DNA of 32,000 nt from Gemmata algarum (GTDB lineage Bacteria > Planctomycetota > Planctomycetia > Gemmatales > Gemmataceae), in NCBI RefSeq assembly GCF_034097035.1, contig NZ_JAXBLV010000001.1:155848-187847 (forward strand), in the 5' to 3' direction. The notes beneath the pieces were generated by a model. That model did no database searches. It saw only the letters and a program-made list of their open reading frames with translations, and was not told the origin of the DNA. The translations under genes were made by a program, and so were the position numbers. Numbering within the stretch: the stretch's first letter is position 1; the number at the start of each line of letters is the position of its first letter. Positions 3,620-18,966 of the stretch are shown in pieces.

Positions 3620-3692
3620 AGGGCTGGCACCTTAGTGAACAGAAGTGAAAAGTTAAGAATTGACGCGATTAGGTATGAGAGCCGAGAGTCTA

Positions 3693-3721
3693 GATGCAAG
3701 TAGGTCTTGGGAGAAAGGTAG
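3693..3721 (-). promoter_or_regulatory. Element motif copy A (CTACCTTTCTCCCAAGACCTACTTGCATC on minus strand)
   Basis: The plus strand reads GATGCAAGTAGGTCTTGGGAGAAAGGTAG. The copy lies between two minus-strand genes, 73 nt upstream of the start at 3619. Confidence 0.5.
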
Positions 3722-3743
3722 AGAAGAGGTCCGCCTTGAAGAC

Positions 3744-4364
3744 CTACAGCCACTGATCCAAGCCGGTCTCTGGTGGACTGTTTCGGCGGCGGGTAGCTAT
3801 CTTGTGAGCCATTCCCAAACTGGAGATCATTCCTTGGGCAGAGGGCCAGTGCAGAGTGCCACCGTCGAACTGTGGGATGAAGTGGTGTTGAGCCGGGGTC
3901 TCGTGTTCCCAGTTGGCTAAGTAACCTGGAAGATCGGTCACGTCCACACCCCAGGGCAGCACCGGAGGCTCTTGCTCACCGTGATATTCGGCCAGGGGAT
4001 CGTGTTTGATAGACCAAGGGCGGTTGGGGTCGTCGGATCGCTGGGACGGGTACTCGTGCTGGAGCCAGTGGGCGAGCGACTGGTGGAAGTCAGCCATATC
4101 GTGGTGATCCTGTTCCCGCAGGTAGTCGGCGTAGGCATTCCGGGTGTTGTGGTCGAAAGGCGACTTGTCCAGGGCTTTGAGGAAGGCTTTGTTTTCTGGC
4201 CCCAACTTCCGCGGTTGCTGGTCCGGAGTCTTTTTGGCTCGCTTTGGTTTGGTGAATTGGCCTGTGGCGGGGTCTACCATCGGCCCGATCCCAGTGAACG
4301 GCTTTTTGGCGAAGTGGAGTGCCTTGTTATACGATTTGGCGTACTTGCGATCCGAACGATCCAT
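3744..4364 (-). CDS. TIGR02996-like (degenerate) repeat-companion-domain protein, 206 aa
   Basis: Segment FLKALDKSPFDHNTRNAYADYLREQDH resembles the TIGR02996 core (..P.DD..RLVYADWLEE.GD). I prefer the ATG at 4364 (MDRSDRKY), which has GAGG 8 nt upstream. The ORF-track start at 4481 would translate through the pentanucleotide repeat. Confidence 0.6.
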   Translation of the reverse strand: MDRSDRKYAKSYNKALHFAKKPFTGIGPMVDPATGQFTKPKRAKKTPDQQPRKLGPENKAFLKALDKSPFDHNTRNAYADYLREQDHHDMADFHQSLAHWLQHEYPSQRSDDPNRPWSIKHDPLAEYHGEQEPPVLPWGVDVTDLPGYLANWEHETPAQHHFIPQFDGGTLHWPSAQGMISSLGMAHKIATRRRNSPPETGLDQWL

Positions 4365-4375
4365 GTAAAACCTCA

Positions 4376-4428
4376 GAAGTGAAGTGAAGTGAAGTGAAGT
4401 GAAGTGAAGTGAAGTGAAGTGAAGTGAA
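4376..4428. repeat. Pentanucleotide microsatellite (GAAGT)x10 plus a partial unit
   Basis: Ten perfect GAAGT units span 4376-4425, followed by GAA. The array ends 11 nt upstream of the ATG at 4364 on the minus strand. It is in frame with an upstream ATG at 4481, where it would encode HFTSL repeats. Confidence 0.95.
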
Positions 4429-4552
4429 CCAGACGTGCAGAACCGCCCTCCCCTACTCAACCCTAGGCAAGGAGAAGGCATAACGCGAAGTGTTAGGACA
4501 GATGTGAACCAGACGAAATGAGAACAGTACTGGGGTCAGGAAAGAGTGTCGT

Positions 4553-4582
4553 GCTGCAAGTAGGGGATTGGGAGAAAGGTAA
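4553..4582 (-). promoter_or_regulatory. Element motif copy B (TTACCTTTCTCCCAATCCCCTACTTGCAG on minus strand)
   Basis: It forms a perfect 27-bp inverted repeat (4555-4581) with copy C (4619-4645). It points left toward the gene starting at 4364. Confidence 0.5.
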
Positions 4583-4617
4583 AGGTCGAAGTCTAGGGCC
4601 GGTGTAGTTTGAGTCCC

Positions 4618-4647
4618 CTACCTTTCTCCCAATCCCCTACTTGCATC
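4618..4647 (+). promoter_or_regulatory. Element motif copy C (CTACCTTTCTCCCAATCCCCTACTTGCATC)
   Basis: It lies back-to-back with copy B in a divergent intergenic region. It points right toward the LRR operon. Confidence 0.5.
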
Positions 4648-5025
4648 TCTATCCTCGACTCTCTGTGTGGTGTTTACTGGCCTGTGCTCTATTATACACT
4701 CCCTACTCTCTGTCCTATTCCACCAGCCCTTGCCCTTGTCCACCTTTCCTCTTTCTTTCTTAAACACCCTAATATATAAATACGACTCTGCCGCAAAATT
4801 TTCGCAGAAAGAAAACCTTCCAGAAGGATTTTACACCCCTGAAATGCTGGAAATTGCAGGAAATCGATCGAGTTGACAAAAATTCAAAATCCCCCGAAGT
4901 GCGAAGAAAACGGTCCGCAGTCGTATTTATCTATTGTGCCCCGCAAGCGACGACAGATATCAGAGTGAAGGTGGCAAGGCAGACGGGTTGGGTGTTGGTG
5001 CTCGGAGAGCCGGTCGCCGTCGCCA

Positions 5026-6096
5026 ATGTCCAGGAAGGGCCAGCACTTGCGAGCCGACTACGGAGCGAGTAAGCTGCGACCTGTAACGATTCCCCGTGGT
5101 GCCCTCGTCATGATTACGATCGCCTCTTTGTCAGCAATCCAGCTCCTCGTCTGTGCCACCGCGGCGGACCCGCCCAAGCAGGCCGAACTCGATCCGAAGA
5201 CCATCGCCGCTTACGAAAAGCTCGGGGCCGAGTACGGCCGCATGTACGTTTTTGATTTAGGGTTCCTGCGTTACCAGGATGCCAAATCGAAAAGCCCAGC
5301 CTCCGCCAACACAATTCCCGCGTTCCGATTCCGAAAAGCCCCCGCTGGCACACTCCCTCCCGTGGAAGGCTCGTTCGGGCTCTACTTCGCTCAAGTACCA
5401 CTGACCGATGCGGACTTGGCCCGAGTCGCCAAACTCGAAGGTGTGACCATGCTCGGGCTCAGCGGCACGCGGATATCGGACCAAGGGCTGACCAACGTCG
5501 CCAAACTCGGCAAGCTCACCGCTCTCGACCTGACCCGAACAGCGATTACGGATAAGGGCCTGAACAGCCTGGCGAAGCTGAACGCACTGGAGACAATACT
5601 CATCGAAGGGACGAACACGACGGATAAGGGGGTAATCGAGATCGCCAAAGTCGAAAGCCTGAAGCTGATCGAACCCGGCCGAAAAAAGGTCACCGACGAC
5701 ATGGTAAACGGGCTGATCGAAGCGAAACGCTTACACATCCTATCGCAGGTGAGAGGGCAGAAGGGCCGAGTCACAGCCGACAAGGACATCAACCTCCTCA
5801 GTCTGGCGAACACGGCGATCACCGACAAAGGGCTGGAGCAGGTCACTAAACTCGGTGCGTTGACTTCCATCTTCGTGAGCGGCACGGGGGTCACAGACAA
5901 GTGCCTAGAGCACGTCGGCAAAGTCACCACGCTGATCAGCCTGGAACTCAATGAGACCGCGGTCAGCGACAACGGACTAGACCACCTGACGAAGTTGTCC
6001 AAACTGTACTGGCTAGAAGTGAAGAAAACGAAAGTGACAGCACCGGGAGTGGTGAAGATCCGAAAGGCCCTGCCGAAATGCGTTGTGGTACCATGA
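5026..6096 (+). CDS. Leucine-rich-repeat protein with N-terminal hydrophobic signal/anchor
   Basis: Repeated units of about 24 aa, such as LTALDLTRTAITDKGLNSLAKL and LSLANTAITDKGLEQVTKL, match the planctomycete TDxGL-type LRR. The hydrophobic segment ITIASLSAIQLLVCATAA is near the N-terminus. An alternative start is the ATG at 5110. Confidence 0.75.
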   Translation: MSRKGQHLRADYGASKLRPVTIPRGALVMITIASLSAIQLLVCATAADPPKQAELDPKTIAAYEKLGAEYGRMYVFDLGFLRYQDAKSKSPASANTIPAFRFRKAPAGTLPPVEGSFGLYFAQVPLTDADLARVAKLEGVTMLGLSGTRISDQGLTNVAKLGKLTALDLTRTAITDKGLNSLAKLNALETILIEGTNTTDKGVIEIAKVESLKLIEPGRKKVTDDMVNGLIEAKRLHILSQVRGQKGRVTADKDINLLSLANTAITDKGLEQVTKLGALTSIFVSGTGVTDKCLEHVGKVTTLISLELNETAVSDNGLDHLTKLSKLYWLEVKKTKVTAPGVVKIRKALPKCVVVP

Positions 6097-6344
6097 GCAA
6101 GTGCTCGATCGTGAGGATGCTCTACACCCGATCGGACGACCCCGGTATCGTTAGACGCTTTCTGGTCCAGGTCGGTAGCAGAGTCCGCCTCGATCAGCCA
6201 CTGGTCGAGCTGGAGATGTTAAAGAGTACACTCGAACTACCTTCACCAGAAGAAGGAGTGGTCACAGACTTGCTGGCGATAGTTGGCCAGAGCGTTGGGC
6301 ATGGCGACCCGCTGCTGACCCTGGAATCCGTCCCGGAGACTTAA
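6093..6344 (+). CDS. Stand-alone biotinyl/lipoyl-attachment-like domain protein, 83 aa
   Basis: VQVGSRVRLDQPLVELEMLKSTLELPSPEEGVVTDLLAIVGQSVGHGDPLLTLE aligns by eye with the BCCP/lipoyl hybrid-barrel pattern (V.vG..V..G..L...EAMKM...i.a...G.V..i....G..V..g..L..iE). Its ATG overlaps the TGA of the LRR gene (ATGA at 6093-6096). Confidence 0.6.
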   Translation: MSKCSIVRMLYTRSDDPGIVRRFLVQVGSRVRLDQPLVELEMLKSTLELPSPEEGVVTDLLAIVGQSVGHGDPLLTLESVPET

Positions 6345-6383
6345 CACCAAACTGTTGGCCGCAACTACACGACCGGAGGATCG

Positions 6384-7031
6384 ATGTTTAAGCGTCTCTG
6401 GGCAGCAGCCCACATCGGACTCACCTTCGCCTCCCTCGGTTGCTGCCTGTACCTCCTGTGGAAGGAGCGGAGCAGAGACCAAGTGCCTACCCGGCCGTTT
6501 GCGGGTGGAGATCCTATCCTACGGCAATTCCTCAAGGCACGCTGGCTGGGCGGGGATTACGAGTTGCCCCCAGGACGTGACCACTGCGGAATCGCGGTCC
6601 TGACGTTCGAGAACGGGCGATTCACCGGGCGGCGGCGGCCGTGGCCCTGGTCCGTCCCACAAGGCGGTTCCCGAGCGATCCCATATCTCGTCATGTGGGG
6701 TCAAACGCCAACGGGTTCCAGAGTGATGACAGCCTCCGGCGGGATGTGCTCATTTGAAGAGAAGGACGAATTCTTCGCCAAACTGGATGGACCGCTGTTG
6801 CGGTGCTACGGCTCCACGAACAATGGTGAGATCAGGGGCTACCGGGTGATCGGGTACGCCGCGTCGAATGAAGAACGTGTGGATAAGGACCGAAAATCAG
6901 ACGCGAGCGAGGCCATCAACTCGATATTTCGAACTCAGCGGCACGTGGCGATACTCGGAGTGAAGACCTTCGACACTGAGGCGGAAGCCCGGACGTGGGC
7001 GAACGAAACGATCGAGGGGGCCGATCCGTAA
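6384..7031 (+). CDS. Hypothetical membrane-anchored protein, 215 aa
   Basis: GGAGGA lies upstream of the ATG. An N-terminal hydrophobic helix (AAAHIGLTFASLGCCLYLLW) is present. I recognised no family. Confidence 0.55.
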   Translation: MFKRLWAAAHIGLTFASLGCCLYLLWKERSRDQVPTRPFAGGDPILRQFLKARWLGGDYELPPGRDHCGIAVLTFENGRFTGRRRPWPWSVPQGGSRAIPYLVMWGQTPTGSRVMTASGGMCSFEEKDEFFAKLDGPLLRCYGSTNNGEIRGYRVIGYAASNEERVDKDRKSDASEAINSIFRTQRHVAILGVKTFDTEAEARTWANETIEGADP

Positions 7032-7064
7032 CCACCATTCCTCCACGACACAGGACGGACCAGC

Positions 7065-7469
7065 ATGCCGGGACTATTCGTCGTTCGTGACGCTTGGGAG
7101 TACGCATCCACGTCGTCCTCCAAACCTCTTGACCGAAAGTGGTTTCCGCTCGTTGAGGATGTTACGGTAATCGGTCGCGATCCTGCCCGGGACGTGGTCA
7201 TACCTGCCATCTACATTCGTCGGGCGGAAGCGAAGATCGTGCGTGAAAACGGGGCGTACTACCTGGAGAGCCTGCCCCACAGCAACGCAACCGTGTTCGA
7301 GGATCAAGTGCCCTGGTGCCACCGAACGAGGCGTGTGCTGAACTACGGTGACCTTATCAAAATCGGGCAGTATGAGTTCGCCTTCTTGAACGATCCAACC
7401 GACCTCATTGTTACCGCGGAAGCGTCGCACCAACAGAGAGCAGCAGCAGATGGCAGGGGCAGAGGATGA
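7065..7469 (+). CDS. FHA (forkhead-associated) domain protein, 134 aa
   Basis: VTVIGRDPARDVVIPAIYIRRAEAKIVRENGAYYLESLPHSNATVFEDQV...LNYGDLIKIGQYEFAFL fits the FHA pattern (iGR....di.l....vSR.Ha.i......y.l.Dl.S.NGt.vn......L..GD.i.iG...f.f). Confidence 0.7.
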   Translation: MPGLFVVRDAWEYASTSSSKPLDRKWFPLVEDVTVIGRDPARDVVIPAIYIRRAEAKIVRENGAYYLESLPHSNATVFEDQVPWCHRTRRVLNYGDLIKIGQYEFAFLNDPTDLIVTAEASHQQRAAADGRGRG

Positions 7470-7492
7470 AGGGAGAAGGAACATCCGGAAAC

Positions 7493-7858
7493 TCAGTTGT
7501 CCGAAGGGCCGAACCTGCTGAAGCGGCGGGGCGGCTCTATGGGGTGGCACTGGATCTCGTCTGTTGTCGTGGAGGGGCGAAACACCCACTCTTCCGCCAC
7601 AGATACGACCTTGGCGCGAAGCATTCGATACCGCTCGAAGTCGCCGTGCTGTTCAGAGTCCCAAGACTCCTCCAGAGACTGGAGGCCCAACCGAGCAACT
7701 TCAGCCCTCTCGACCACAGGACCACGGATCTGAACCGGGACAACATCTACAACGTGAGCGTTCACCAACTCGCCATCCTGGCCGACAAGCTGCATATCGA
7801 ACAGAACCGCGTAGGCCCGCAACATCTGAGCCGGGTTCGTGGGAGTAACATTACTCAT
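7493..7858 (-). CDS. Hypothetical protein, 121 aa
   Basis: ATG start with GGAG 9 nt upstream. It lies 20 nt downstream of the stop of 7879..8337(-). Its composition is more protein-like than the overlapping plus-strand ORFs. Confidence 0.5.
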   Translation of the reverse strand: MSNVTPTNPAQMLRAYAVLFDMQLVGQDGELVNAHVVDVVPVQIRGPVVERAEVARLGLQSLEESWDSEQHGDFERYRMLRAKVVSVAEEWVFRPSTTTDEIQCHPIEPPRRFSRFGPSDN

Positions 7859-7878
7859 TCAGGTTCTCCAGGAAGGCT

Positions 7879-8337
7879 TTAATTCTCAGACGGGGTGTAT
7901 TTGCGGCGTGATGTGTCGGGCACGTAGCAAGTGTGGCTAACTTTCGCGGGCTCGGAGGCCACCACCCACTCTTTTGCAGACTCCACCAGCATCCAATCCA
8001 CAGTTTGCCACTGGCGGAGCGGCCCCATAGATTCTGTACGCCAGCCGGAACGCAAAGACTCCATCGCCAACTCCACCACCTCCTCTTCTCCGATCTCTCT
8101 AGCGTCTGGCTCCAAGAACGACACGGGAACAGGCTGGACGACAGGAGCTTTGAGGCCCGCACGCCGCAGAGTAAGCAGGACAACGAAGGACTGGAGATAC
8201 TCCACCGGATTCGGGGCCGAGAATCGGGATTGACGAACCAGAACAGCGGCACACATACGAGACACCTTGACGAGTGCAGAGGAGGGAACCTTAACCTGCC
8301 ATACATATAGAGGCAGAAGCAGACCGAATTGTTGCAC
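7879..8337 (-). CDS. Hypothetical protein, 152 aa; first gene leftward of the 8338-8870 control region
   Basis: GTG start at 8337 with no clear SD, so the start is uncertain. It is operonic with 7493..7858. No family recognised. Confidence 0.4.
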   Translation of the reverse strand: MQQFGLLLPLYVWQVKVPSSALVKVSRMCAAVLVRQSRFSAPNPVEYLQSFVVLLTLRRAGLKAPVVQPVPVSFLEPDAREIGEEEVVELAMESLRSGWRTESMGPLRQWQTVDWMLVESAKEWVVASEPAKVSHTCYVPDTSRRKYTPSEN

Positions 8338-8349
8338 TAAACCACACCA

Positions 8350-8367
8350 TTTTGAGAATTCTCAAAA
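8350..8367. promoter_or_regulatory. Perfect 18-bp palindrome TTTTGAGAATTCTCAAAA, operator-like
   Basis: Read directly from the sequence. It lies immediately 5' of motif copy D, and a TTTTGAGA half-site recurs at 8487-8494 just beyond copy E. Confidence 0.6.
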
Positions 8368-8369
8368 TC

Positions 8370-8398
8370 CTACCTTTCTCCCAAGACCTACTTGCATC
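8370..8398 (+). promoter_or_regulatory. Element motif copy D (CTACCTTTCTCCCAAGACCTACTTGCATC)
   Basis: Perfect 29-bp inverted repeat with copy E. It points right toward the replication module starting at 8871. Confidence 0.5.
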
Positions 8399-8455
8399 AA
8401 TACGAACACACTCGACCCCAGAATGACGATTCAGAGAGGCAACTTCGAGGATCGA

Positions 8456-8484
8456 GATGCAAGTAGGTCTTGGGAGAAAGGTAG
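8456..8484 (-). promoter_or_regulatory. Element motif copy E (identical to D, minus strand)
   Basis: The plus strand reads GATGCAAGTAGGTCTTGGGAGAAAGGTAG. It points left toward the gene starting at 8337. D and E face each other across a 57-nt spacer. Confidence 0.5.
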
Positions 8485-8490
8485 TGTTTT

Positions 8491-8613
8491 GAGACGGCAG
8501 AGACGGCAGAGACGGTGATTTTGGGGAACAGCTCCTCTTCTCTCTTCTTTCTTCAAAACATGGTCAAGGAAAGAGTTTTGGGAAAACGCCGTCTCTGCCG
8601 TCTCTGCCGTCTC
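8491..8613. repeat. 25-bp perfect inverted repeat built from tandem 9-mers (GAGACGGCA), arms at 8491-8515 and 8589-8613
   Basis: The left arm is GAGACGGCAGAGACGGCAGAGACGG and the right arm is its exact reverse complement. The spacer is 73 nt and pyrimidine-rich. Confidence 0.9.
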
Positions 8614-8870
8614 GAATTCCCCATCAGACCACGCTCGCTTTCGACCAGTGGACGCCACAAATCAGCCTTTTCTGGGCACCGTCGCCGGCAATGTTGCAGC
8701 AAAATTGAAAATGCCCAAAAATCTTAAACCCTTCGACACCATAGGTTTTTGAACACCTTCAATCCTACCCTGTGCCAAATCTGTCGTCTTACCTGGAATC
8801 GCTGCCTATATATTATTGGGGAGCCCATACTGACTTCCCACGAGTATCCAAACCGATGAGGAAATAAACC

Positions 8871-9092
8871 ATGACCAAGGCCAAGACCGCGACCGACCTC
8901 GTGAACGTGCAACTGCCCCACCTGACTCACCGGGTGATTCGGGAGCGAGCAAAACAATTAATGGCCAACGTGAAGATCGTTACCACCGCAATGGCCCGAG
9001 GATTCGAGCAGCTCAGTCTGGAGGAGCAGACGAAACTAATCGACGAGGCCCGAGCCAAGCTCATTCAGGCCGAGTCTGCAAAGGGTAACTAA
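8871..9092 (+). CDS. Small DNA-binding-like protein, possible ribbon-helix-helix (Arc/CopG-type), 73 aa
   Basis: GAGGA lies upstream of the ATG. The N-terminal segment DLVNVQLPHLTHRVIRERAKQL looks like a beta-strand plus helix as in RHH proteins. It is the first gene after the repeat-rich control region. The fold call is tentative. Confidence 0.45.
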   Translation: MTKAKTATDLVNVQLPHLTHRVIRERAKQLMANVKIVTTAMARGFEQLSLEEQTKLIDEARAKLIQAESAKGN

Positions 9093-9198
9093 TCGCGTGT
9101 GTTCCACCTGCCCCCTTCACTCTAACGGCGTGTTCAATTCTCCGGTCTCGCACCGGTCGCACCTTCACTTCTTCTCTCTCACTTCCCGAGGCATTTCC

Positions 9199-9621
9199 AT
9201 GAGTTACCTTGATTCGATTCCCGCGTCCCACCTCGTCCCGAAGGGCACACTAGTTCAGTGCCGTCTCCTCTCCTGCGTCCGCTCTCGGCATTTCGCTAAC
9301 GGGCAGAAAATCCAATACGAGTGTTCCTGGCAGGTTACAGAGGGGCCATATGCCGGTCACGTGCTAACGCGGAGCTGGTGGACAACCCCGGGCGGACTCC
9401 CGGTGCTGTACGCCGATTGCGAAAAGCTCGACATTGGGCACCCAGAGGAACTTTGCTTCGGCCCGCCTGACCCGATCGTTGTTGAGGGTGTCGCCTCGAT
9501 CAGCGAGTACAACGGCGTGTCGCGAAACGAGCTGTGCAGAATCGATCGCCGAGTGCTCCCGCAGACCTCACGCACCCGCCCCAGAGAAGTCTTCGACGAT
9601 GAGATCAGCACCGCATTTTAG
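9199..9621 (+). CDS. DUF669-like / SSB-like phage protein, 140 aa
   Basis: The pattern VPKGT...W.VTEGPYAGHV......EYNGVSRNEL resembles DUF669 phage proteins. The acidic C-terminal tip FDDEISTAF is reminiscent of SSB tails (DDDIPF). I chose the ATG at 9199, which lies within ORF 9097..9621. Confidence 0.4.
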   Translation: MSYLDSIPASHLVPKGTLVQCRLLSCVRSRHFANGQKIQYECSWQVTEGPYAGHVLTRSWWTTPGGLPVLYADCEKLDIGHPEELCFGPPDPIVVEGVASISEYNGVSRNELCRIDRRVLPQTSRTRPREVFDDEISTAF

Positions 9622-9650
9622 CCCCACCCCACTCACAGAAGGACAGACAT

Positions 9651-11399
9651 ATGGCAAAGAAAAAGGTCACGAAAGCAGACATTCAGGGCCAGTACGAGGT
9701 CTTCCGGTTGCTAGGCATCCGGCTGGTTAGGTCGAAGTCCGGGGAGCTGTTCCTGGCCACCAGCCCGACCGGTAAGCCCGGGGGGAGCGTGGAGCTACAG
9801 CCCTACGACCTAGCTGAGTCGTGTGAAGAGATTAAGTGGGTACTACGAGAGGCGAACAAGTCCGCGGACATGCGATTAGTAGCCGAGGCTGTCAAGGGAC
9901 TCGTCCGAAGCACCAAAAAAAGCCCACCGGAAATGGTGTCGCGTCGCGTCGCCGAGCGGGACGGAAAAATCTTTGTAGACCTGTGCGACGCAAAACGGCA
10001 GGTGGTGGAGATTTCGGCTGACGGGTGGCGAGTCACCACCGACTGCCCGGCTCTCTTTCACCGGCCGCTCCAGGCTCTACCCCTGCCGGTCCCGGTTCAG
10101 GACGGCTCCATTCAGCGATTGCGGGAACTGTTCAGCATTCTGGACGAGCCGAGTTGGATTTTGGTGTTGGGCTGGCTGAGCACCACCCTGAAGGAGCACT
10201 GCGACCACCCGTTCTTGTCGATCCTGGGTCCGCCGGGTTCGGGCAAGAGTGCCCTCACCAAGTTTGCGTACTGCACGATCGATCCTCGCGAGGCGAAGGG
10301 GCTGCAGATGCAGCAGAACGCAGAGGATTTGCAACTCAGTGCTTTCAACCGCTGGGTACTCCCGCTCGATGAGGTCGATAGTCTCCCGCCGGAAAAATCC
10401 CGGATCGTAGCGACCATCTGCACGGGCGGGGCTCTCGAAAAGCGAAAGAAGTACGAGGATACGGAAGTTGTATGTGCTGTAATCAATCGCCCGGCCATCA
10501 TCAACGGGCTAGAGGCAGGGGAGTGGCTGCACGAGGAGCGAATCCGGGACCGTGCGATTCCCGTGACTCTCAGTCGGGTGCGACCCGAAGCCAGTGTTGA
10601 GGACGGAGATCTTATCCGAGCGTTCGAGCGACATCACCCGGAGATACTCGGTGGCCTTTTCACAATCGTTTCCCGGGCACTCAGAGGCGTTCGGGATGGA
10701 GAGGCGTCAGCCCACCACGCTCTGCGAATCAAGGAGGCCATGACGTGGGCGGATCGCTGCGTACACGCTGCGGGATACCCGAAAGGGGAGTTCACCCGGC
10801 TGGTGACGGAAGCACACGCCAGGGTCGTTGAGAGGGTGGCCGAAGAGTGGCCCCTACTCGACCCACTACTGAAAGTGGCTGGATCGGGGTTCCAGGGCAG
10901 TCCTACGGAGCTTCTAGACAAGCTCAACAGCATGGTCGAGCGGAAGGGGCGAGATTGGCCGAAGAGTTCGAGCCAACTGACCCGAGCGATCAATCTACAC
11001 ATCGATTACCTGGAAAAGCGGGGCGTCCGGGCTGAGCACACCAAGGGCCAGCAGCGATTCTGGGTAATTCGGTCGGTCCCGAGTTCCCCTCAAAAGAGTG
11101 CCGACTCAGTGAATGCGGCCAAACCGCTGGCATCATTATCCGAAGGCGAGCAGTCAGACTTGAAGTCGAAGCTCCTTCGGTGGGCCGATTTTGCAGACAA
11201 AATCGATATCTGCTTCACTCACCGGGACTCCAGCAACACGCTGTATGGTCGATTTGCAGAGGCGGCCTCGATCGCCTTGAAGAGAACTTTGGAGCCAGAC
11301 CGCACGCTGCGAATACCTGATGACGAGTTTCTCTCACTCGACACAGCAAGCGAGTTACTACTTGTCGAAATTAATCCAAGAACTGAGGGCAAAAATTGA
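9651..11399 (+). CDS. P-loop NTPase, replicative primase/helicase-like protein of mobile elements, 582 aa
   Basis: Walker A is LGPPGSGKSALTK and a Walker B-like segment is WVLPLDEVDSL. The N-terminal region (RVAERDGKIFVDLCDAKRQVVEISADGWRVTTDCPALFHRP) is typical of P4/D5-type element replication proteins. GAAGGA lies upstream of the ATG. Confidence 0.65.
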   Translation: MAKKKVTKADIQGQYEVFRLLGIRLVRSKSGELFLATSPTGKPGGSVELQPYDLAESCEEIKWVLREANKSADMRLVAEAVKGLVRSTKKSPPEMVSRRVAERDGKIFVDLCDAKRQVVEISADGWRVTTDCPALFHRPLQALPLPVPVQDGSIQRLRELFSILDEPSWILVLGWLSTTLKEHCDHPFLSILGPPGSGKSALTKFAYCTIDPREAKGLQMQQNAEDLQLSAFNRWVLPLDEVDSLPPEKSRIVATICTGGALEKRKKYEDTEVVCAVINRPAIINGLEAGEWLHEERIRDRAIPVTLSRVRPEASVEDGDLIRAFERHHPEILGGLFTIVSRALRGVRDGEASAHHALRIKEAMTWADRCVHAAGYPKGEFTRLVTEAHARVVERVAEEWPLLDPLLKVAGSGFQGSPTELLDKLNSMVERKGRDWPKSSSQLTRAINLHIDYLEKRGVRAEHTKGQQRFWVIRSVPSSPQKSADSVNAAKPLASLSEGEQSDLKSKLLRWADFADKIDICFTHRDSSNTLYGRFAEAASIALKRTLEPDRTLRIPDDEFLSLDTASELLLVEINPRTEGKN

Positions 11400-12343
11400 A
11401 GTGCGGGAACAAAGAAACCACGTGCGGCTGGTGCGAGAAGCTGGAGCAGCTCGATCTCATTTCGGGTTCAAACTACAACTGCCTACCGTGTGACCGAACC
11501 TCTGATGTAATAGAGTGCGAATGCAACAAGTGCAAAAAAACCTATCACGAGAATGTGATCAGAACCAAGAAGTGTGGCTTTAAGGTGGTGGAAGGACGAT
11601 CTTGCTGCCCACACTGCTTCTACAAAGCCAACGACGGCTTCAAGAGTCGCGACCCAAATGGCATCCAAGAGGGTCAACGTAAACTCCGCGACACCCAAGG
11701 AAAACCCGCACTTGGCACTCCACCGACTCCGCGAGAAGCGAGGGCAATTTGTGCTTATGCTTTGGCCGAAACATTTATGAAAGCAAATAAAGAGGACCCT
11801 CTAAGTCAGGATGACCTTCTGAACCGCCTGACTGCCAAGGGCACCGAATGCGTTTTTCGTTTTATCCCTTCGACACCAGACATGGTAATTCCCAAATTTC
11901 GCACAAGTTACAATTGCTGCCTTGAGGTGCCAAGGGGGTTCGTAGGATACTGTTGGAAATGTTACAAGCAGATTCTAACAGATATCTACTCAGAGCGTGA
12001 ACAATCACCTCAGCTCCTTGAGTACAGTGAAGGACCAACCGAAGCTGCAGCTAAGCCCGGTCTTAACCCAGGCCAGATCCTCCTAGACCCTCTCCCTTTA
12101 CTGCTGCCGCCGCTCAACAACCTGACACAGCAGCAACAGGACGTTCTTTTGATGAGTCTAGGACTGCACCAGGAGTATGACGGGGAGCTGTCCGATAACG
12201 AGATCGCCAGCCTCCTCAATATCTCTCCCGGGAACGTCCGCTCTACCAAGAGCAGGGCAAAGACACAATTGAGTGCCGATCCGGAGCTAGCAACCCTTTT
12301 TGCCAAGATATCCAGGCGTCAGACCACTGACGGGTGGCACTAG
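11396..12343 (+). CDS. Zinc-ribbon (multiple CxxC) protein with C-terminal sigma-70 region-4-type HTH, 315 aa
   Basis: The N-terminus has CGWC, CLPC, CECNKC and CCPHC. The C-terminus LTQQQQDVLLMSLGLHQEYDGELSDNEIASLLNISPGNVRSTKSRAKTQL matches the region-4 pattern (L.p.qr.vl.l.y..g.s..EIA..lgis.gtVks...rA...L). No region 2 is evident. The TTG start overlaps the upstream TGA (TTGA at 11396-11399). Confidence 0.6.
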   Translation: MKCGNKETTCGWCEKLEQLDLISGSNYNCLPCDRTSDVIECECNKCKKTYHENVIRTKKCGFKVVEGRSCCPHCFYKANDGFKSRDPNGIQEGQRKLRDTQGKPALGTPPTPREARAICAYALAETFMKANKEDPLSQDDLLNRLTAKGTECVFRFIPSTPDMVIPKFRTSYNCCLEVPRGFVGYCWKCYKQILTDIYSEREQSPQLLEYSEGPTEAAAKPGLNPGQILLDPLPLLLPPLNNLTQQQQDVLLMSLGLHQEYDGELSDNEIASLLNISPGNVRSTKSRAKTQLSADPELATLFAKISRRQTTDGWH

Positions 12344-12379
12344 CAGAGTAGCAGCGTTGGGAGCAGGCAGGACCTAAAT

Positions 12380-12408
12380 CTACCTTTCTCCCAACCCCTA
12401 CTTGCATC
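12380..12408 (+). promoter_or_regulatory. Element motif copy F (CTACCTTTCTCCCAACCCCTACTTGCATC)
   Basis: It lies 25 nt upstream of the TTG start at 12434. Confidence 0.5.
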
Positions 12409-12433
12409 TCGACCCTCTACCCCAAGGACTACA

Positions 12434-12760
12434 TTGACTACAGACGATCACACTTTGCACGCCCTCTCCCACCCTTCCCTTCAGGCCCTTCTTCCTGCCC
12501 GCGACCACGGAAAGCCATACAACCCTAACCGACTAGCCGACTGGTGCAGGCGGGGACGCCGGGGGTTAGATGGGGAGCAGGTCTACTTGAAATCAGAGAA
12601 GCAGGGCGGGCAATACATGACGAGTATCGTAGCTTTGCGGGAATTCCTGGAGAAGACCGGCCTGAGCGTGGAGGATGAGGACGAGGAGTTTCACGAATTC
12701 TACTACCACCCACTACCACCGGTGTCCTTCCCTGCCACTAAGAACCACAGGCGAAATTGA
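12434..12760 (+). CDS. Small HTH-like protein (excisionase/DUF1580-like), 108 aa
   Basis: PYNPNRLADWCRRGRRGLDGEQVYLKSEKQGGQYMTSIVALREFLEKTG resembles the pattern tl.RW...G.rG.kL....vGG....ts.eAl.rFl of excisionase-type or DUF1580 proteins. TTG start. The assignment is tentative. Confidence 0.4.
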   Translation: MTTDDHTLHALSHPSLQALLPARDHGKPYNPNRLADWCRRGRRGLDGEQVYLKSEKQGGQYMTSIVALREFLEKTGLSVEDEDEEFHEFYYHPLPPVSFPATKNHRRN

Positions 12761-12814
12761 CCACAAGGGCGGTCGCGGGGTGGTAGACTTGGTACCTGGC
12801 GAGGAGTAACCGTC

Positions 12815-13462
12815 GTGGACGACAGCCTCGACAGCAAAGTTCGCCTGCCCTTTCAGTGGTCCCACCGCAAGGCACACTTGCTACTCTGTGCATCGTGCGG
12901 CCCGGCACTTCGTTTAGTCGGCAGTCGGGAACTGCAAGTAGCCATCGAAGTGGGCGAGTTGCACAGTGACGGCCAATCGACAGCCGACCAAATTCAGATC
13001 GAAGTGGAGCGAGCACGTGCGGCGGTCACACGGCTGACGAGCGACGAGGTGCTGCGTACCCTTGCCGACATCGTTTGTCGAGCAGCCACTTTTCTCGTCC
13101 CCTCTTGGCTCGATGGCCGCTTGGTTCAGGGAGAGCCGCGAGACGTGCCTAACCTGCTAACCTCCATCTTAGGTTTGGCCGAGTTGGTAGGCGGCGTGGC
13201 GGATGGCCGGACCTTGTTTGACACCCTGTTCGATGACATCGAGGCCCGTGGCGTCCTTTGCTGTCCCGAGTGGCGTACCGAGACTGTTTTGGCCCTCGCA
13301 CGCGAGATGTACGAGTCCCGCGACTTCAGCGCGATGCCGATTCTCGCAGATGCCCTTCAGGACGCCGGGTGTAACAACGAAGACGTGTTGAACCACTGCC
13401 GCGGGCCGGGGCCACACGTTCGAGGCTGTTGGGTGGTGGACCTCCTGCTCGGAAAAGAGTGA
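12815..13462 (+). CDS. Planctomycete paralog-family protein with C-terminal ILADALxDAGC...HCRGPGPHVRGCWVVDLLLG motif, 215 aa
   Basis: GTG start with GAGGAG 9 nt upstream. The C-terminal motif is MPILADALQDAGCNNEDVLNHCRGPGPHVRGCWVVDLLLGKE and is shared with 13954..14625. Confidence 0.65.
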   Translation: MDDSLDSKVRLPFQWSHRKAHLLLCASCGPALRLVGSRELQVAIEVGELHSDGQSTADQIQIEVERARAAVTRLTSDEVLRTLADIVCRAATFLVPSWLDGRLVQGEPRDVPNLLTSILGLAELVGGVADGRTLFDTLFDDIEARGVLCCPEWRTETVLALAREMYESRDFSAMPILADALQDAGCNNEDVLNHCRGPGPHVRGCWVVDLLLGKE

Positions 13463-13575
13463 TAGCGAGCCGTGTCGGGCAAACCCCTATTTCTGGTGCG
13501 GGCGGAACTTTCGCCAGTCTTCGGTCTCGCAGCGGTTCTAGTTTTGAGCCCTGCCCCTTATCCGGAGACGTAATC

Positions 13576-13917
13576 GTGTTAGCTGCACACACGACCGAAC
13601 GCCGCCGATCCGCCCGTTTCCTGCCCGCTTTCGTTACTTACTGCCGTGCCGGAAGTGGTGGCGAAGGACTCGTCTGGAACATTTCGGTTACCGGTCTGGG
13701 GATGCTCATCGGGTTCCCGCCCGAAGAGAGCCAGACGCTGCCGATCGAGCTATCGAACCACACCACGTGCCTCTGCTTGATGGCGAAAGTGGCCCACGTC
13801 CGGCAGTTAGAGGCTGGGGACTTCTTCGTCGGGTTGCGATTCGATAAGCCCCTCGGAAAACACGAGATGGAGCATTTCGTGAAGCTGAAGGAGCCGAAGT
13901 TGGGAACTTGCCGATAG
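13576..13917 (+). CDS. PilZ-domain protein (putative c-di-GMP receptor), 113 aa
   Basis: RRRSAR fits RxxxR, and about 24 aa later NISVTG fits (D/N)xSxxG. GTG start at 13576 with GGAG 8 nt upstream. The longer ORF-track start at 13429 would overlap the previous gene. Confidence 0.6.
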   Translation: MLAAHTTERRRSARFLPAFVTYCRAGSGGEGLVWNISVTGLGMLIGFPPEESQTLPIELSNHTTCLCLMAKVAHVRQLEAGDFFVGLRFDKPLGKHEMEHFVKLKEPKLGTCR

Positions 13918-13953
13918 CGAGAGCCCACGTGCTACCGGTCCGCAGAGGGCACC

Positions 13954-14625
13954 ATGACCGAATCCGAGTGGCTGACCTGCACCGACCCGAGCCCGATGAT
14001 CGACTTTCTGTCCCGAGAGGGGAACGACAGGCCCCTGCTCCTTGCCGAGTCTGCGTTCTGCTCCCGGATCGCCCACCACCTCACCGACCCTCGGAGCCGA
14101 GATGCGGTAGCCGCCCTTCAGCGACTGGCCGAGAGAGGACGTGATTCCGACCCGTTCCCCGAGCTGATGCCCGCCGTCTACGCCGCACAGGATGCATCCA
14201 ACGCTTTCGACGCACTCGGTGAGGCTGCAACCATCGAAGACGCCGCCCGCGTGTCAGCCGCTACGGCCGCAGGATACGTTGGGGTCGGAGGAACGGTCTC
14301 GGTTGCGGTGAGCTGTCAGGCGGCTGCTGACCCCACCGGTGACGGATCTCGCGAACGGGCCGCTCAGGCAGACCTCCTGCGGGAGTTCGCACACCCCTTC
14401 CGTACCTCACCAGACGCCGCGTGGATGACGCCAACCGTGGTCGCCCTGGTCCGGGGTATCATTGCCGACGCGGCCTTCGACCGACTACCGATTCTCGCGG
14501 ACGCCCTGGAGGATGCTGGGTGTGCTGATTCGGTCTTGCTGGCCCACTGTCGAGGTGACTGCCCCCACCTTCCGGGATGCTGGGCTGTTGAGTTACTGAA
14601 CCACTCTCCGGCCACTGGTCGCTAA
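13954..14625 (+). CDS. Second member of the same paralog family, 223 aa
   Basis: The N-terminus is MTESEWLTCTDPSPMIDFL. The C-terminus is LPILADALEDAGCADSVLLAHCRGDCPHLPGCWAVELL. Confidence 0.7.
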   Translation: MTESEWLTCTDPSPMIDFLSREGNDRPLLLAESAFCSRIAHHLTDPRSRDAVAALQRLAERGRDSDPFPELMPAVYAAQDASNAFDALGEAATIEDAARVSAATAAGYVGVGGTVSVAVSCQAAADPTGDGSRERAAQADLLREFAHPFRTSPDAAWMTPTVVALVRGIIADAAFDRLPILADALEDAGCADSVLLAHCRGDCPHLPGCWAVELLNHSPATGR

Positions 14626-14651
14626 GAAACTTCGGCCTGAAGGGAATCGGG

Positions 14652-15011
14652 ATGCGTGAAGCCCTCGCTCCTGTCGTTGCAGCCGTTGTGATCCTGGCCC
14701 TGTGGGTGGTCGCCCGGGGGTTGAGGACGATTCGCGAGCAGCCCAAGAAGGTCGTTCGCACTCCCCCTGCGTGGGTACCCAAAGGTCCAGCCGATTACGA
14801 CACACTTCTGCGGGCCGTTCGAGCAGAACTGGCAAGGAACTTGGTGGGACGAGTGGACTGGACACGCCCGGTCGAGGAGATCAGGCAGAGCATCCGTCCG
14901 GCCGTCGAACACCTGATCGATACCGCGAACCCGCTGCTCAACCGGATCGAACGGGGGAGGCTCATTCAGGAGGTGGTAGACGGAATCAAGTCGCCTTCAC
15001 AATCAGAGTGA
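14652..15011 (+). CDS. Small membrane-anchored hypothetical protein, 119 aa
   Basis: GAAGGGA lies upstream of the ATG. An N-terminal TM helix (APVVAAVVILALWVVA) is present. The soluble part (YDTLLRAVRAELARNL...IRPAVEHLIDTANPLLNRIERGRLIQEVVDGI) is reminiscent of the N-terminal segment of CpaF/TadA-type ATPases, but no ATPase domain follows. Confidence 0.5.
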   Translation: MREALAPVVAAVVILALWVVARGLRTIREQPKKVVRTPPAWVPKGPADYDTLLRAVRAELARNLVGRVDWTRPVEEIRQSIRPAVEHLIDTANPLLNRIERGRLIQEVVDGIKSPSQSE

Positions 15012-15435
15012 CTACCGTTGACAGACCAACGACCTCGACCCCGATCAAACTGCACCAGCTTTAGTTCTCCCCTCTACCACTCTGAATATAGATTCTGATC
15101 GCAGGGTAGAAATGCCTTGATCCGCCCGAGCAGCAGATGCATTGGCCACGGAACCAAATACCATACGGCCCACTTCGACCACACAGCAATCAGTAGAATT
15201 TCAACAAGATCCGCGGTTCTTCAGATTTCCCGGCACGATATTTTCACCATATTCGACCGAGAGCCCATCCAAGGGTTTCTGGAGGTGTATCACTCTTGAT
15301 CGCACCAGACGAGGCCATTGGTGACAAACTGCACGGGTCTCGGACCGGTAGCCGAATGGGATGCGACGCGATCCTATTCCGAACCGCACGCAGGGCACTA
15401 ATCGCAGACAGTTCCCACCCTCACTCGATCGCCCT

Positions 15436-15630
15436 ATGGAGGCCACTTTGCCTAACCCCAAGCGTTACGACTGGTATGCCTTCCCTCCTAAAGGCAGGCT
15501 CACTATAGCGAACCGCGTTCAGCAAAATATAGATCAGCCACTCACGAAGGACGAAATATATGCAATGGCGGAGTATCTATTAGCTTGCGAGACGCCTCCA
15601 GAGGCTCCACAAGAACCCGAATCACGGTAG
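15436..15630 (+). CDS. Small hypothetical protein upstream of the recombinase, 64 aa
   Basis: ATG at 15436 within ORF 15361..15630. No recognisable family. It could be a recombination directionality factor by position only. Confidence 0.3.
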   Translation: MEATLPNPKRYDWYAFPPKGRLTIANRVQQNIDQPLTKDEIYAMAEYLLACETPPEAPQEPESR

Positions 15631-15704
15631 ACCCGCAATTCTTCGGAGTTGGGCACCGTGATCGCTCCACAGTGCTCGTCTCTTTTTCTTTTTTGGTACT
15701 TGTT

Positions 15705-17411
15705 ATGCGAGCCGCTACTTACATTCGGATGTCAACCGCCGATCAAGAGAACAGTCCCGACCGTCAACGCAACCAGATCGAGCCCTACTGCAAGTCGAAG
15801 GGGTACTCTGTAGTTCACCGCTACGAAGACTTAGGGATGCGGGGCACGGACGACTCTAGACCACAGTTCCAGAGGCTCTTGGCTGACGCTCAGAAGGGAC
15901 TGTTTGATGTGATCGTAGTAGACGAACAGTCGAGGCTCACCCGCACCGACCCTGTGGACTTCATTGCTGAGGTTGTCAGTCCGCTGCGGAATGCGAACGT
16001 GGTGATCGACACGGTGGCTAAGGGGGTCATCAACTGGAGTGATCTGGGGCAGTTCATTGTCGGCTCGGTCGCTCAGCACGCTTCCAACAACGAAGTGGCC
16101 ACTCTCAGTAGACGCGTGGTTACGGAACTGGCTCGGAAGGCCCTAAAAGGAGATGTGGTTGCGGGTAAAGCTCCCTACGGATACGAACAAGTGTGGAAGG
16201 ACTCGACGGGCAAGGTGGTTCACAGGGGTAAGAGGAACTGGACTAAGAGACCGTCAGGGTGGGAACCGACTCTGGAAGTGAAAGAGGAAGAGGCGAAGGT
16301 GGTGAGGTGGATCTACGAGGCTTACACGACAGGGGGGCTGACTCTCAAGGGGATCACTAACGACCTACACAACCAAGGCACTCCATCTCCAAAGGGTGGA
16401 AAGTTCTGGAACCGGGCTCAGATCCGCAACATTCTCACTAACCGAGTCTACACGGGGGATTTCGTCTTCAACCGCGTGTCCGTCGGTGGGTTTCACAAGT
16501 TGGGGTGGGCCGGAACTGGAGAAGATCGATCCGGAGTAGCGGTCCCGAAGAAGCAGGTCAAGGGTAAAAAGGCACCGGCTACCAAGAATGCAGAGGAGGA
16601 TTGGGTAATCGTTCCAGACCACCACCCGGCTCTCGTTACCAAGGAACAGTGGGAACAGGCTCAGGTCGCATTGAAGACCAACAGAGACCGGTGCAACCCT
16701 GTGGCTGGTGGCGGGGATTACGCTCTGTCCAACGTACTAGTCTGCTCTCACTGCGGGAGTACCTTTGTTGGGGACCGCGACCGCACGGGAAAGTTCTACC
16801 TCTGTGGCGGGTACGCTCGGAATGGCATTAAGCACTGCAAGCCCTACCGCGTGGCCGAACGGAATGCCGTCGGACTGGTGGAGATGGAGTTGTACAATCA
16901 CTTCGCTTCTCCAGTGGCCCGAGAGTTGTTAAGGCAGCAGGTTGCAGGACGACAACAGAACGCCATCGACACCGATGCAGGTCAGTGTAATCGGGCGAAA
17001 CGGACCATCGCCACTTTGAATCGCAAACTGGCCACGGCTTCTCGCAACATCCTTCTTTTAGACCCAGAACGCGTTCCGGACGCACAGAACCAAATCAGGC
17101 AGTGGGAAAGCGAGAAGGTCCAAGCCTTAGCTACACTCAGTTCTTTAGTCGCACCGAAGCCGATTAAAGACCCGGATGAAGCTCTTGCTCGCCTGGAGTG
17201 CCAACTACACGCTATGCAGGAGGCAAGGACGAAGAGTAGCCCTGAGAATTTCCGAAAGCTTGCCCGTGCCTGCCTTGAGAAAGTCGAACTGAGGTTTCTC
17301 TCAACTCCTCGTGGAAAGTTGAAGAGGCACACTTTGGTCGGTGGGACGACTCACTTTAAGAACGGAGCCATCTGTACCTTCGACATCAGCCCCACAACTA
17401 AGACCAGGTGA
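15705..17411 (+). CDS. Large serine recombinase (phage-type serine integrase), 568 aa
   Basis: The N-terminal resolvase domain is AATYIRMSTADQENSPDRQRNQI...FDVIVVDEQSRLTR, with the catalytic Ser in the YIRMST context. A recombinase domain follows, then a zinc ribbon (CSHCGSTFVG...YLCGGYARNGIKHC) and a C-terminal coiled-coil-like region. I chose the ATG at 15705. Confidence 0.85.
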   Translation: MRAATYIRMSTADQENSPDRQRNQIEPYCKSKGYSVVHRYEDLGMRGTDDSRPQFQRLLADAQKGLFDVIVVDEQSRLTRTDPVDFIAEVVSPLRNANVVIDTVAKGVINWSDLGQFIVGSVAQHASNNEVATLSRRVVTELARKALKGDVVAGKAPYGYEQVWKDSTGKVVHRGKRNWTKRPSGWEPTLEVKEEEAKVVRWIYEAYTTGGLTLKGITNDLHNQGTPSPKGGKFWNRAQIRNILTNRVYTGDFVFNRVSVGGFHKLGWAGTGEDRSGVAVPKKQVKGKKAPATKNAEEDWVIVPDHHPALVTKEQWEQAQVALKTNRDRCNPVAGGGDYALSNVLVCSHCGSTFVGDRDRTGKFYLCGGYARNGIKHCKPYRVAERNAVGLVEMELYNHFASPVARELLRQQVAGRQQNAIDTDAGQCNRAKRTIATLNRKLATASRNILLLDPERVPDAQNQIRQWESEKVQALATLSSLVAPKPIKDPDEALARLECQLHAMQEARTKSSPENFRKLARACLEKVELRFLSTPRGKLKRHTLVGGTTHFKNGAICTFDISPTTKTR

Positions 17412-17455
17412 GACCAGAATTCGCGTTTGTGGGCCATTGGCTCTTTGGTGAAAAT

Positions 17456-17485
17456 CTACCTTTCTCCCAAATTCCTACTTGTATC
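17456..17485 (+). promoter_or_regulatory. Element motif copy G (CTACCTTTCTCCCAAATTCCTACTTGTATC), the most diverged copy
   Basis: It lies 57 nt upstream of the HNH endonuclease start at 17543. Confidence 0.45.
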
Positions 17486-17503
17486 TAGATCCCCTCCCCT
17501 TCA

Positions 17504-17532
17504 CCCCGGCTCCGGCTGGGGCTTTTCTATTT
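17504..17532 (+). terminator. Weak hairpin (CCCCGGC-TCCG-GCTGGGG) followed by a T-rich tract
   Basis: A 7-bp stem including one G-U pair, then CTTTTCTATTT. It could terminate recombinase transcription or act as a leader attenuator. It lies between motif G and the next gene. Confidence 0.3.
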
Positions 17533-18034: not shown

Positions 18035-18072
18035 CTCTTCCTCCTCAGCCTTCGGGTTGGGAGTTTCCCCTT

Positions 18073-18885: not shown

Positions 18886-18966
18886 TGGCCAAGGTGGGAC
18901 TCGAACCCACACAGGTTGCCCCGCTCGATTTTGAGTCGAGTGCGTCTGCCATTCCGCCACTTGGCC
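18886..18966 (-). tRNA. tRNA-Leu, anticodon CAA, 81 nt, CCA not encoded
   Basis: The reverse complement is GGCCAAGTGGCGGAATGGCAGACGCACTCGACTCAAAATCGAGCGGGGCAACCTGTGTGGGTTCGAGTCCCACCTTGGCCA. It folds with a 7-bp acceptor stem (GGCCAAG/CTTGGCC), anticodon stem CTCGA/TCGAG with loop CTCAAAA, a long variable arm and a GTTCGAGTC T-loop. Confidence 0.9.

Follow-up and report, generated by a model that had tools for sequence, protein, structure and literature searches.

The closest described counterparts of the arrangement reported here are found in bacteriophages. The promoter sets of T7 and SP6 (class II/III) and the early promoters of the Streptomyces phage phiC31 consist of near-identical 20–30-nt sequences that stand at the heads of transcription units and are co-oriented with them. 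These phage promoters are unlike the host consensus, are restricted to the element and show conservation that reaches the first transcribed bases. Alongside the phiC31 promoters, separate conserved inverted repeats serve as operators. Temperate phages of the P2/186 type use a face-to-face switch built from two different sigma-70 promoters, and the PeSL elements of T4-type phages, comprising a sigma-70 early promoter and a stem-loop, flank exchangeable cassettes. We know of no comparable promoter set described for a planctomycete. The stoperators of the cluster A mycobacteriophages (L5, Bxb1, TipsytheTRex) are asymmetric sites of 13–14 bp, located in promoters and short intergenic spaces and also within operons, with more than 20 copies per genome (20–30 or more); their orientation is tied to the direction of transcription, and their reader is a monomer with two DNA-binding domains (PMC9283540). 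Here, we describe a conserved intergenic motif that is present in seven copies in a phage-like element of the planctomycete Gemmata algarum JC673. The window analyzed is a 32,000-nt stretch of contig NZ_JAXBLV010000001.1 (positions 155,848–187,847; genes R5W23_000139-150), and coordinates below are those of this window unless another contig is named.

An initial annotation of this stretch had listed seven copies of the motif, and each was re-located in the sequence at its position and on its strand:

Copy A: 3683–3721 (core 3693–3721 plus ∼10 nt of weaker downstream conservation), minus strand, found by position weight matrix (PWM) and nhmmer
Copy B: 4543–4582 (core 4553–4582), minus strand, with TTACC... 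and ...GCAGC variants
Copy C: 4618–4657 (core 4618–4647), plus strand, heads the block of the LRR gene, gene 6384–7031 and the FHA gene
Copy D: 8370–8404 (core 8370–8398), plus strand, heads the replication block and the sigma-like gene
Copy E: 8445–8484 (core 8456–8484), minus strand, heads genes 7882–8256 and 7493–7858
Copy F: 12380–12418 (core 12380–12408), plus strand, heads the DUF1580-to-recombinase block
Copy G: 17456–17495 (core 17456–17485), plus strand, with a GTATC variant

The motif has the form CTACCTTTCTCCCAA-N2/3-CCTACTTGCATC and is 29–30 nt long. The spacer before CCTAC, given earlier as 3–4 nt, is actually 2–3 nt, and the earlier pattern taken literally fits just two copies. 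Block 1 (CTACCTTTCTCCCAA) yields seven matches at up to three mismatches, compared with 0.58 expected, and none of 100 shuffles reaches seven; block 2 (CCTACTTGYATC) adjoins block 1 in all copies. With a two-block PWM, the seven copies score 43–47 bits and the best of 20 shuffles scores 16, with no other scoring site in the 32 kb. An nhmmer profile hidden Markov model (HMM) recovers the seven copies (E 7e-13 to 2e-9), set apart by a clear score gap, and no further, weaker ones in the window, and neither the PWM nor nhmmer places a copy inside a gene of the window. A degenerate eighth copy had been suspected in the gap at 15012–15360 and was rejected by nhmmer. The weaker conservation reported to continue downstream is present as TCGATCCTC, though in only ∼8 of 12 aligned copies, and its inclusion brings the total conservation to ∼40 nt.

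The placement of the copies follows the genes closely. All seven are intergenic, as originally noted, while only 14.3% of the element is intergenic (chance ∼1e-6). Every copy is directed toward the gene that follows on its own strand, also as first described, and the copies head every co-directional gene block. Co-orientation with the downstream gene holds for 7/7 window copies and for an independent copy in front of an Abi_C gene in Gemmata obscuriglobus (see further results below). A copy is found in five of the six gaps of at least 90 nt, a count that leaves out 9093–9198, where the start codon is probably uncertain; the short intergenic gaps inside gene blocks contain none. The sole large intergenic gap without a copy, 15012–15360 (349 nt), precedes a possible 89-aa open reading frame (ORF; 15361–15630) and the serine recombinase; the latter may be served by a different promoter of its own. 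Copies A, F and G lie 23–45 nt after the stop of a co-directional gene: A is 23 nt past the stop of gene 3744–4364 and 73 nt ahead of the GTG at 3619, F is 36 nt past the stop of the sigma-like gene 11396–12343, and G is 45 nt past the recombinase stop and 57 nt ahead of the ATG of the NUMOD4-HNH gene. Copy B is back-to-back with copy C and 188 nt upstream of the ATG at 4364, and the leader following copy C is ∼378 nt long. The back-to-back copies are separated by 35 bp for B and C and by 31 bp for a pair in G. obscuriglobus (Go_x and Go_g), distances too short for separate promoters to fit in ahead of the motif. To the right of the tRNA gene that borders the element, PWM and nhmmer find no copy in ∼13 kb of JC673 host flank, in agreement with the initial annotation, and the motif is absent from ∼20 kb of host flank in total (13 kb from JC673 and ∼7 kb from G. 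obscuriglobus). Restriction to the element thus holds for the flanks examined.

Several kinds of element can be set aside. The 42-nt motif is predicted to be unstructured as RNA, with folding energies of 0 to −3 kcal/mol and z near 0 for eight of the nine copies; only the diverged Abi_C copy of G. obscuriglobus deviates (−2.7 kcal/mol, z −3.2). A REP-like (repetitive extragenic palindromic) element, a terminator and a hairpin promoter are ruled out by this lack of structure. The motif does not have the GC-rich hairpin and U-run of an intrinsic terminator, the sole such site being at 17504–17521, downstream of copy G. The earlier exclusion of a pure terminator or 3′-element role stands: the motif is without a hairpin, and copies B, C and E have no same-strand gene upstream. 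Coding conservation is also ruled out, since a 1-nt indel sets some copies apart from others, and Rfam reports only the tRNA in the window. By direct reading the motif is asymmetric, with no dyad symmetry. A serine-recombinase att or invertase site was rejected on this ground and because the motif persists in G. obscuriglobus, where the recombinase block is missing. A miniature inverted-repeat transposable element (MITE) is disfavored as well, since the D/E flanks are inverted rather than direct and there are no target-site duplications.

The relation of the motif to known promoter classes is less simple than first proposed. A fit to sigma-70 had been denied on the basis of spacing. The mismatch of the hexamers is real (by direct reading CTACCT matches at 2/6 and TTGCAT at 3/6 positions, the latter missing the A at position 2), but the claim about spacing fails, as the geometry CTACCT-N16/17-TTGCAT is canonical. 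The blocks are separated by N16 in copies of 29 nt and by N17 in those of 30 nt; the agreement with sigma-70 is one of geometry only. A consensus scan (TTGACA/TATAAT) detects no sigma-70-like promoter in the intergenic regions of the element. A fit to sigma-54 was rightly dismissed: of its consensus TGGCAC-N5-TTGCW, TTGCAT fits the −12 part, whereas the GG of the −24 part is missing, the sequence 11 nt upstream of TTGCAT being CCAAGAC or CAATCCC.

Judging from position, we favor the interpretation of the motif as an element-specific promoter, or as a promoter core plus control consensus, with a probability of roughly 55%. A promoter-type signal best explains the data because there is one copy per unit head, co-orientation is strict, the back-to-back pairs are tight and no other promoter-like sequence is present. 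It is favored further because the conserved ∼40 nt are as long as the stretch from −35 to +1 that an RNA polymerase holoenzyme covers, and because the two blocks tolerate a 1-nt change in spacing. In such a model, each transcription unit (tail-fibre-like, TIGR02996, LRR/FHA cargo, two-gene minus unit, replication, DUF1580-to-recombinase and HNH) would begin with one copy. Block 1 would serve as a −35-like and block 2 as a −10-like element, with a 1-nt length tolerance typical of two-domain sigma recognition, and transcription would start within the weakly conserved TCGATCCTC directly downstream. Since the hexamers match neither sigma-70 nor sigma-54, a dedicated specificity factor would be needed; candidates are an alternative sigma of the host and a factor encoded by the element, possibly its zinc-ribbon plus sigma region-4 protein. 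The identical 30-bp heads might, as a by-product, provide recombination joints for cassette exchange. It is from the arrangement of the copies that we infer transcription initiation, the assignment of the two blocks and the identity of the reader.

A number of features weigh against a promoter. The spacer between the putative −35 and −10 elements is almost invariant, which is unusual for sigma promoters, and the hexamers match no known sigma consensus. The putative leaders are long and variable, from 25 to 470 nt, and copy G is followed after 19 nt, still ahead of the HNH gene, by a strong terminator-like hairpin. Orthologous copies in the two Gemmata species are ∼92% identical compared with a background of 93%–94%, giving no cross-species signal of extra constraint. 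Domain searches of the proteins of the window and of the G. obscuriglobus locus detect no RNA polymerase or complete sigma factor in the visible element. Oriented repressor sites of the stoperator kind, moreover, produce the same positional pattern.

Additional repeats and a hairpin lie close to three of the copies:

8350–8367: perfect 18-bp palindrome TTTTGAGAATTCTCAAAA, adjoining the upstream edge of copy D, read directly
8491–8515 and 8588–8613: two inverted arrays of the 9-bp iteron GAGACGGCA, in the replication-block leader
17504–17531 (hairpin 17504–17521), plus strand: terminator-like hairpin and T-run, after copy G and ahead of the HNH start codon

Copies D and E had been placed in a divergent intergenic region. 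Their genes do diverge, but the two copies are face-to-face (convergent) rather than back-to-back, forming an inverted repeat of 39 nt that flanks 57 bp. Their start-to-start distance would be ∼86 bp, and the putative D and E leaders overlap in antisense over ∼115 bp. A half-site of the palindrome, TCTCAAAA, adjoins copy E as well. By its sequence, the palindrome could be the operator of a separate, dimeric regulator, and the iteron arrays are a candidate origin or regulator-binding region. The anatomy would be compatible with a convergent-promoter switch, in which the adjacent palindrome and iterons are the sites of separate regulators. Because the palindrome and iterons resemble such sites, the long asymmetric motif would be the common core rather than an operator. 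At copy G, the hairpin and T-tract mentioned in the initial annotation are present, strong and terminator-like, beginning 19 nt after the copy. The hairpin is kept in G. obscuriglobus (L004 ∼12500–12530), where UUCG replaces UCCG in the loop and a U-G pair replaces one C-G pair of the stem.

The element that carries the motif stands out in base composition. From position 1 to ∼18.9 kb the GC content is 51%–61% in most 1-kb bins, with a single exceptional bin at 14–15 kb (64.5%), and the host DNA to the right of tRNA-Leu(CAA) has a GC content of 60%–71%. As this low-GC stretch encodes tail-fibre-like, primase/helicase-like, recombinase and HNH genes, we conclude that it is an integrated phage-like element adjoining tRNA-Leu(CAA). 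It extends beyond the left end of the window, ∼19 kb being the visible part. The gene map, refined by comparison with G. obscuriglobus, comprises the following features:

GTG at 3619, minus strand: 1054-aa collagen-repeat, tail-fibre-like gene, downstream of copy A
3744–4364 (ATG 4364), minus strand: gene of a 206-aa TIGR02996 protein, downstream of copy B
5026–6096, plus strand: LRR gene, in the block headed by copy C
6384–7031, plus strand: gene in the block headed by copy C
7065–7469, plus strand: FHA gene, in the block headed by copy C
7882–8256 and 7493–7858, minus strand: two-gene unit headed by copy E
8871–9092, plus strand: gene of a 73-aa protein, replication block, headed by copy D
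9199–9621, plus strand: gene in the replication block, headed by copy D
9651–11399, plus strand: 582-aa primase/helicase-like ATPase, replication block, headed by copy D
11396–12343, plus strand: Cys-rich (zinc-ribbon-like) protein with a C-terminal sigma-70 region-4 helix-turn-helix (HTH; residues 240–292)
12434–12760, plus strand: DUF1580 gene, first gene of the block headed by copy F
15705–17411, plus strand: large serine recombinase, at the end of the block headed by copy F
17543–18034, plus strand: NUMOD4-HNH endonuclease gene, downstream of copy G
18085–18735: gene of a TIGR02996-domain protein, matching the NCBI and G. obscuriglobus annotation
18886–18966: tRNA-Leu(CAA), bordering the right side of the element

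Two predicted reading frames were discarded. A 372-aa ORF at 17620–18738 is spurious, the NCBI and G. obscuriglobus annotation supporting 17543–18034 and 18085–18735 instead, and the plus-strand ORF at 7466–7882 is probably spurious, overlapping the real minus-strand gene 7493–7858. Within the 1054-aa collagen-repeat gene, a tandem repeat with a period of 96 nt occupies 2081–2422 (3.6 copies, 67% matches). PADLOC and PHROG searches of the cargo proteins identify only the tail-fibre-like collagen repeats and the Abi_C relative.

The motif is retained in the second species, where it also stands before non-homologous cargo, and this adds support to the initial interpretation. The G. obscuriglobus locus (L004), reached via its close relative of the sigma-like protein, holds an orthologous element at the same tRNA-Leu site, with the host flank and the HNH gene 94% identical. 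This element is shorter and decayed and contains six motif copies, four canonical and two diverged. One of the diverged copies heads the Abi_C gene, an unrelated cargo that JC673 lacks; in this copy block 2 and TCTATCCTC are exactly kept, and block 1 has four changes. The Abi_C-domain gene (L004 11031–11939) takes the place of the 4.7-kb DUF1580-to-recombinase block of JC673. On its left side, the GC boundary of this shortened element is marked by an insertion sequence (DDE_Tnp_1; L004 2267–2989).

Homology between the two elements breaks at five points, and motif copies, which together cover ∼1% of the element, lie at two of them. At copy A, homology ends exactly at the downstream edge (3692), and in copy G it starts inside the copy, at 17474. 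The cargo after A is the tail-fibre-like gene in JC673 and three small genes in G. obscuriglobus; the cargo before G is the recombinase block in JC673 and Abi_C in G. obscuriglobus. The other three breakpoints coincide with a (GAAGT)n microsatellite, with a short tandem repeat and with the end of an operon. The microsatellite, a perfect (GAAGT)10.6 at 4376–4428, lies in the 188-nt leader between copy B and the ATG at 4364. It has ∼8 units in G. obscuriglobus, homology between the two elements stops exactly there, and it could be a phase-variation or recombination hotspot. We also observed that a G. obscuriglobus Logan contig (SRR5887367, 7592 bp, in at least 20 runs) stops on the last base of the copy homologous to F, which hints that the genome of G. 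obscuriglobus contains the identical 30-mer at another place as well.

The protein encoded at 11396–12343 is the only visible candidate for a reader, although its assignment as such is pure conjecture; a host alternative sigma, or a factor encoded to the left of the window, is equally possible. Only sigma region 4 is recognizable in it, with no region 2 detected even at E ≤ 10. A PDB sequence search returned no match, and the AlphaFold2 model, with a predicted local distance difference test score (pLDDT) of 35, is unusable. An exhaustive HMMER search gave only four matches among 1.84 billion representatives, namely three short region-4 fragments of 61–87 aa and a protein of 1855 aa that is matched weakly and repeatedly. 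Its sole close relative is in G. obscuriglobus, where the orthologue is frameshifted near codon 27 in both assemblies (L004 9620–10000, and L005) and only the C-terminal 186 aa are annotated. A more elaborate proposal, in which an orphan element factor retargets host RNA polymerase to a private 30–40-bp promoter class whose heads double as cassette-exchange joints, we regard as doubtful. The zinc-ribbon plus sigma region-4 protein might play this part by itself or together with a partner, in the manner of a split sigma or of sigma appropriation, and the structural, replication, recombinase and cargo units would all belong to a single private regulon.

The strongest rival to a promoter, unlikely but to be taken seriously, is that the copies are oriented stoperator-like or operator sites through which one element regulator silences or gates all units. 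It would act at promoters at B, C, D and E and block elongation between co-directional genes at A, F and G, the three copies positioned 23–45 nt past the stop of such a gene. The pattern of position and orientation matches that of the cluster A mycobacteriophage stoperators (PMC9283540). The regulator might be a two-domain monomer, for example the zinc-ribbon plus HTH protein: protein 11396–12343 contains two putative DNA-binding modules, and two blocks with a flexible spacer of 2–3 nt suit a two-domain protein. However, the conserved length of 29–40 nt, against 13–14 nt in stoperators, holds far more information than a monomeric site needs, and no recognizable promoter for the regulator to act upon lies beside or under the B/C, D/E or Go_x/Go_g copies. 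The spacing of back-to-back copies at 31–35 bp and the short gaps within blocks that have no copy also speak against silencing, and at D/E the palindrome and iterons already supply operator-like sites. Finally, Pfam, PHROG and NCBIfam searches found no homologue of an L5-type repressor.

An improbable alternative is a primary role in recombination. The motif would then be a joint, either a linker or a target of the NUMOD4-HNH endonuclease or the serine recombinase, at which cassettes are exchanged, inverted or deleted, and any transcriptional role would be secondary. HNH homing endonucleases typically recognize long asymmetric bipartite sites. The breakpoints at or inside copies (2/5, for sequences covering ∼1% of the element), the different cargo after the same motif in the two species and the inverted pairs B/C, D/E and Go_x/Go_g are all consistent with such a joint, but it leaves the strict co-orientation and the placement at every unit head unexplained. 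The motif, moreover, is without serine-recombinase dyad symmetry and persists in G. obscuriglobus, which is without the recombinase. The remaining three breakpoints are elsewhere, at the microsatellite, the short tandem repeat and the operon end, and 30 bp of identity suffices for occasional homologous exchange without a dedicated enzyme. The closest recombinase relative, on a 3.2-kb metagenome contig (L016; 63% identity, recombinase at 843–2378), has a NUMOD4-HNH neighbor and is without the motif. The neighboring gene (77–604, 37% identity) lies beside the recombinase, upstream rather than downstream, and the recombinase-HNH pairing may be conserved.

It is slightly less probable still that the copies are transcribed leader elements, either recruiting an antiterminator (of the ops/JUMPstart, nut or put type) or forming a pyrimidine-rich mRNA site for a translation or stability factor. 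The motif is indeed pyrimidine-rich and unstructured and is followed by CU-rich leaders; an antiterminator loaded at G could read through the hairpin directly after it; and read-through transcripts of the co-directional arrays would include A, F and G. Against this, back-to-back copies 31–35 bp apart leave no space for the upstream promoters that a leader requires, and distances of 25 to 470 nt to the start codon argue against a translational role. No NusG paralogue or N/Q-like protein was detected in the window or among the L004 proteins, and Rfam reports nothing besides the tRNA. A selfish or neutral repeat with no role in expression (a REP-like repeat, a bacterial interspersed mosaic element or a MITE terminal inverted repeat) is very improbable: the D/E 39-nt inverted repeat around 57 bp is superficially MITE-like and the Logan contig that ends exactly at a copy hints at further copies, but there is neither hairpin potential nor a target-site duplication at D/E, copies A, F and G are single and unpaired, orientation agrees perfectly with the genes, host flanks and gene interiors have no copies, and no multi-copy matches were found in the collections described next, whose scans missed both carriers.

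So far, the motif is known from two closely related genomes, and among ∼15 billion sequences the proteins of the element are found only in G. algarum and G. obscuriglobus. Multi-copy matches to the motif were not found in 185,579 species representatives, metagenome or viral contigs; these scans missed both known carriers, JC673 and G. obscuriglobus being absent or masked, and are therefore silent on genome-wide restriction in the carriers. Scans of the collections with a spacing of N3-4 and then of N2-3 gave isolated single matches of 14–18 bits, as against 26–47 bits for true copies, in low-GC metagenome contigs, a cyanobacterium, an Acidobacteriota metagenome-assembled genome (MAG) and a Latescibacterota MAG. 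Neither the motif nor a comparable multi-copy intergenic repeat is present in the elements with distant primase/helicase homologues (L010–L012) or in those with the closest recombinase relatives (L013–L016). In the literature we found no usable transcription start site or promoter data for Gemmata or the Planctomycetes.

To our knowledge, very little is known of promoter architecture in Planctomycetes, and genetic tools for them are scarce. Should the motif turn out to be a private promoter, this group would gain its first defined class of element-specific promoters. A compact, portable sequence of 30–40 bp together with its reader could then serve as an orthogonal expression system, and both G. 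obscuriglobus and G. algarum JC673 are culturable strains. It would also show how cargo cassettes can be swapped by a mobile element whose promoter heads are uniform, as exemplified in near-identical chromosomal contexts by Abi_C versus the recombinase block and by the tail-fibre-like gene versus other genes. If the copies instead mediate stoperator-like silencing, that mechanism would extend well beyond the actinobacteriophages.

Compared with the systems outlined at the start, the motif shares features with each. Like stoperators, it is asymmetric, bipartite and multi-copy, with an orientation that follows transcription; unlike them, it spans 29–40 bp, is present in seven copies at unit heads only and comes with no detected related repressor. 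The D/E region resembles the P2/186 switch in being convergent, in setting a short minus-strand unit against a small protein and replication genes and in having operator-like repeats alongside, but here both arms share one consensus sequence. As at PeSL or moron boundaries, a repeated sequence flanks exchangeable cassettes and breakpoints coincide with it, although the motif contains neither a sigma-70 promoter nor a stem-loop. The T7, SP6 and phiC31 sets differ in several respects: the motif has no sequence similarity to their consensus, its host is a planctomycete, no single-subunit RNA polymerase or complete sigma was detected in the visible 19 kb, and its spacer varies between 2 and 3 nt, so that the fixed register of T7-type promoters is missing. 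In organization, the motif resembles these sets, with near-identical copies at unit heads that are co-oriented and unlike the host consensus, with conservation that may reach past the putative +1, and with a palindrome beside copy D that might act as the phiC31 operators do.

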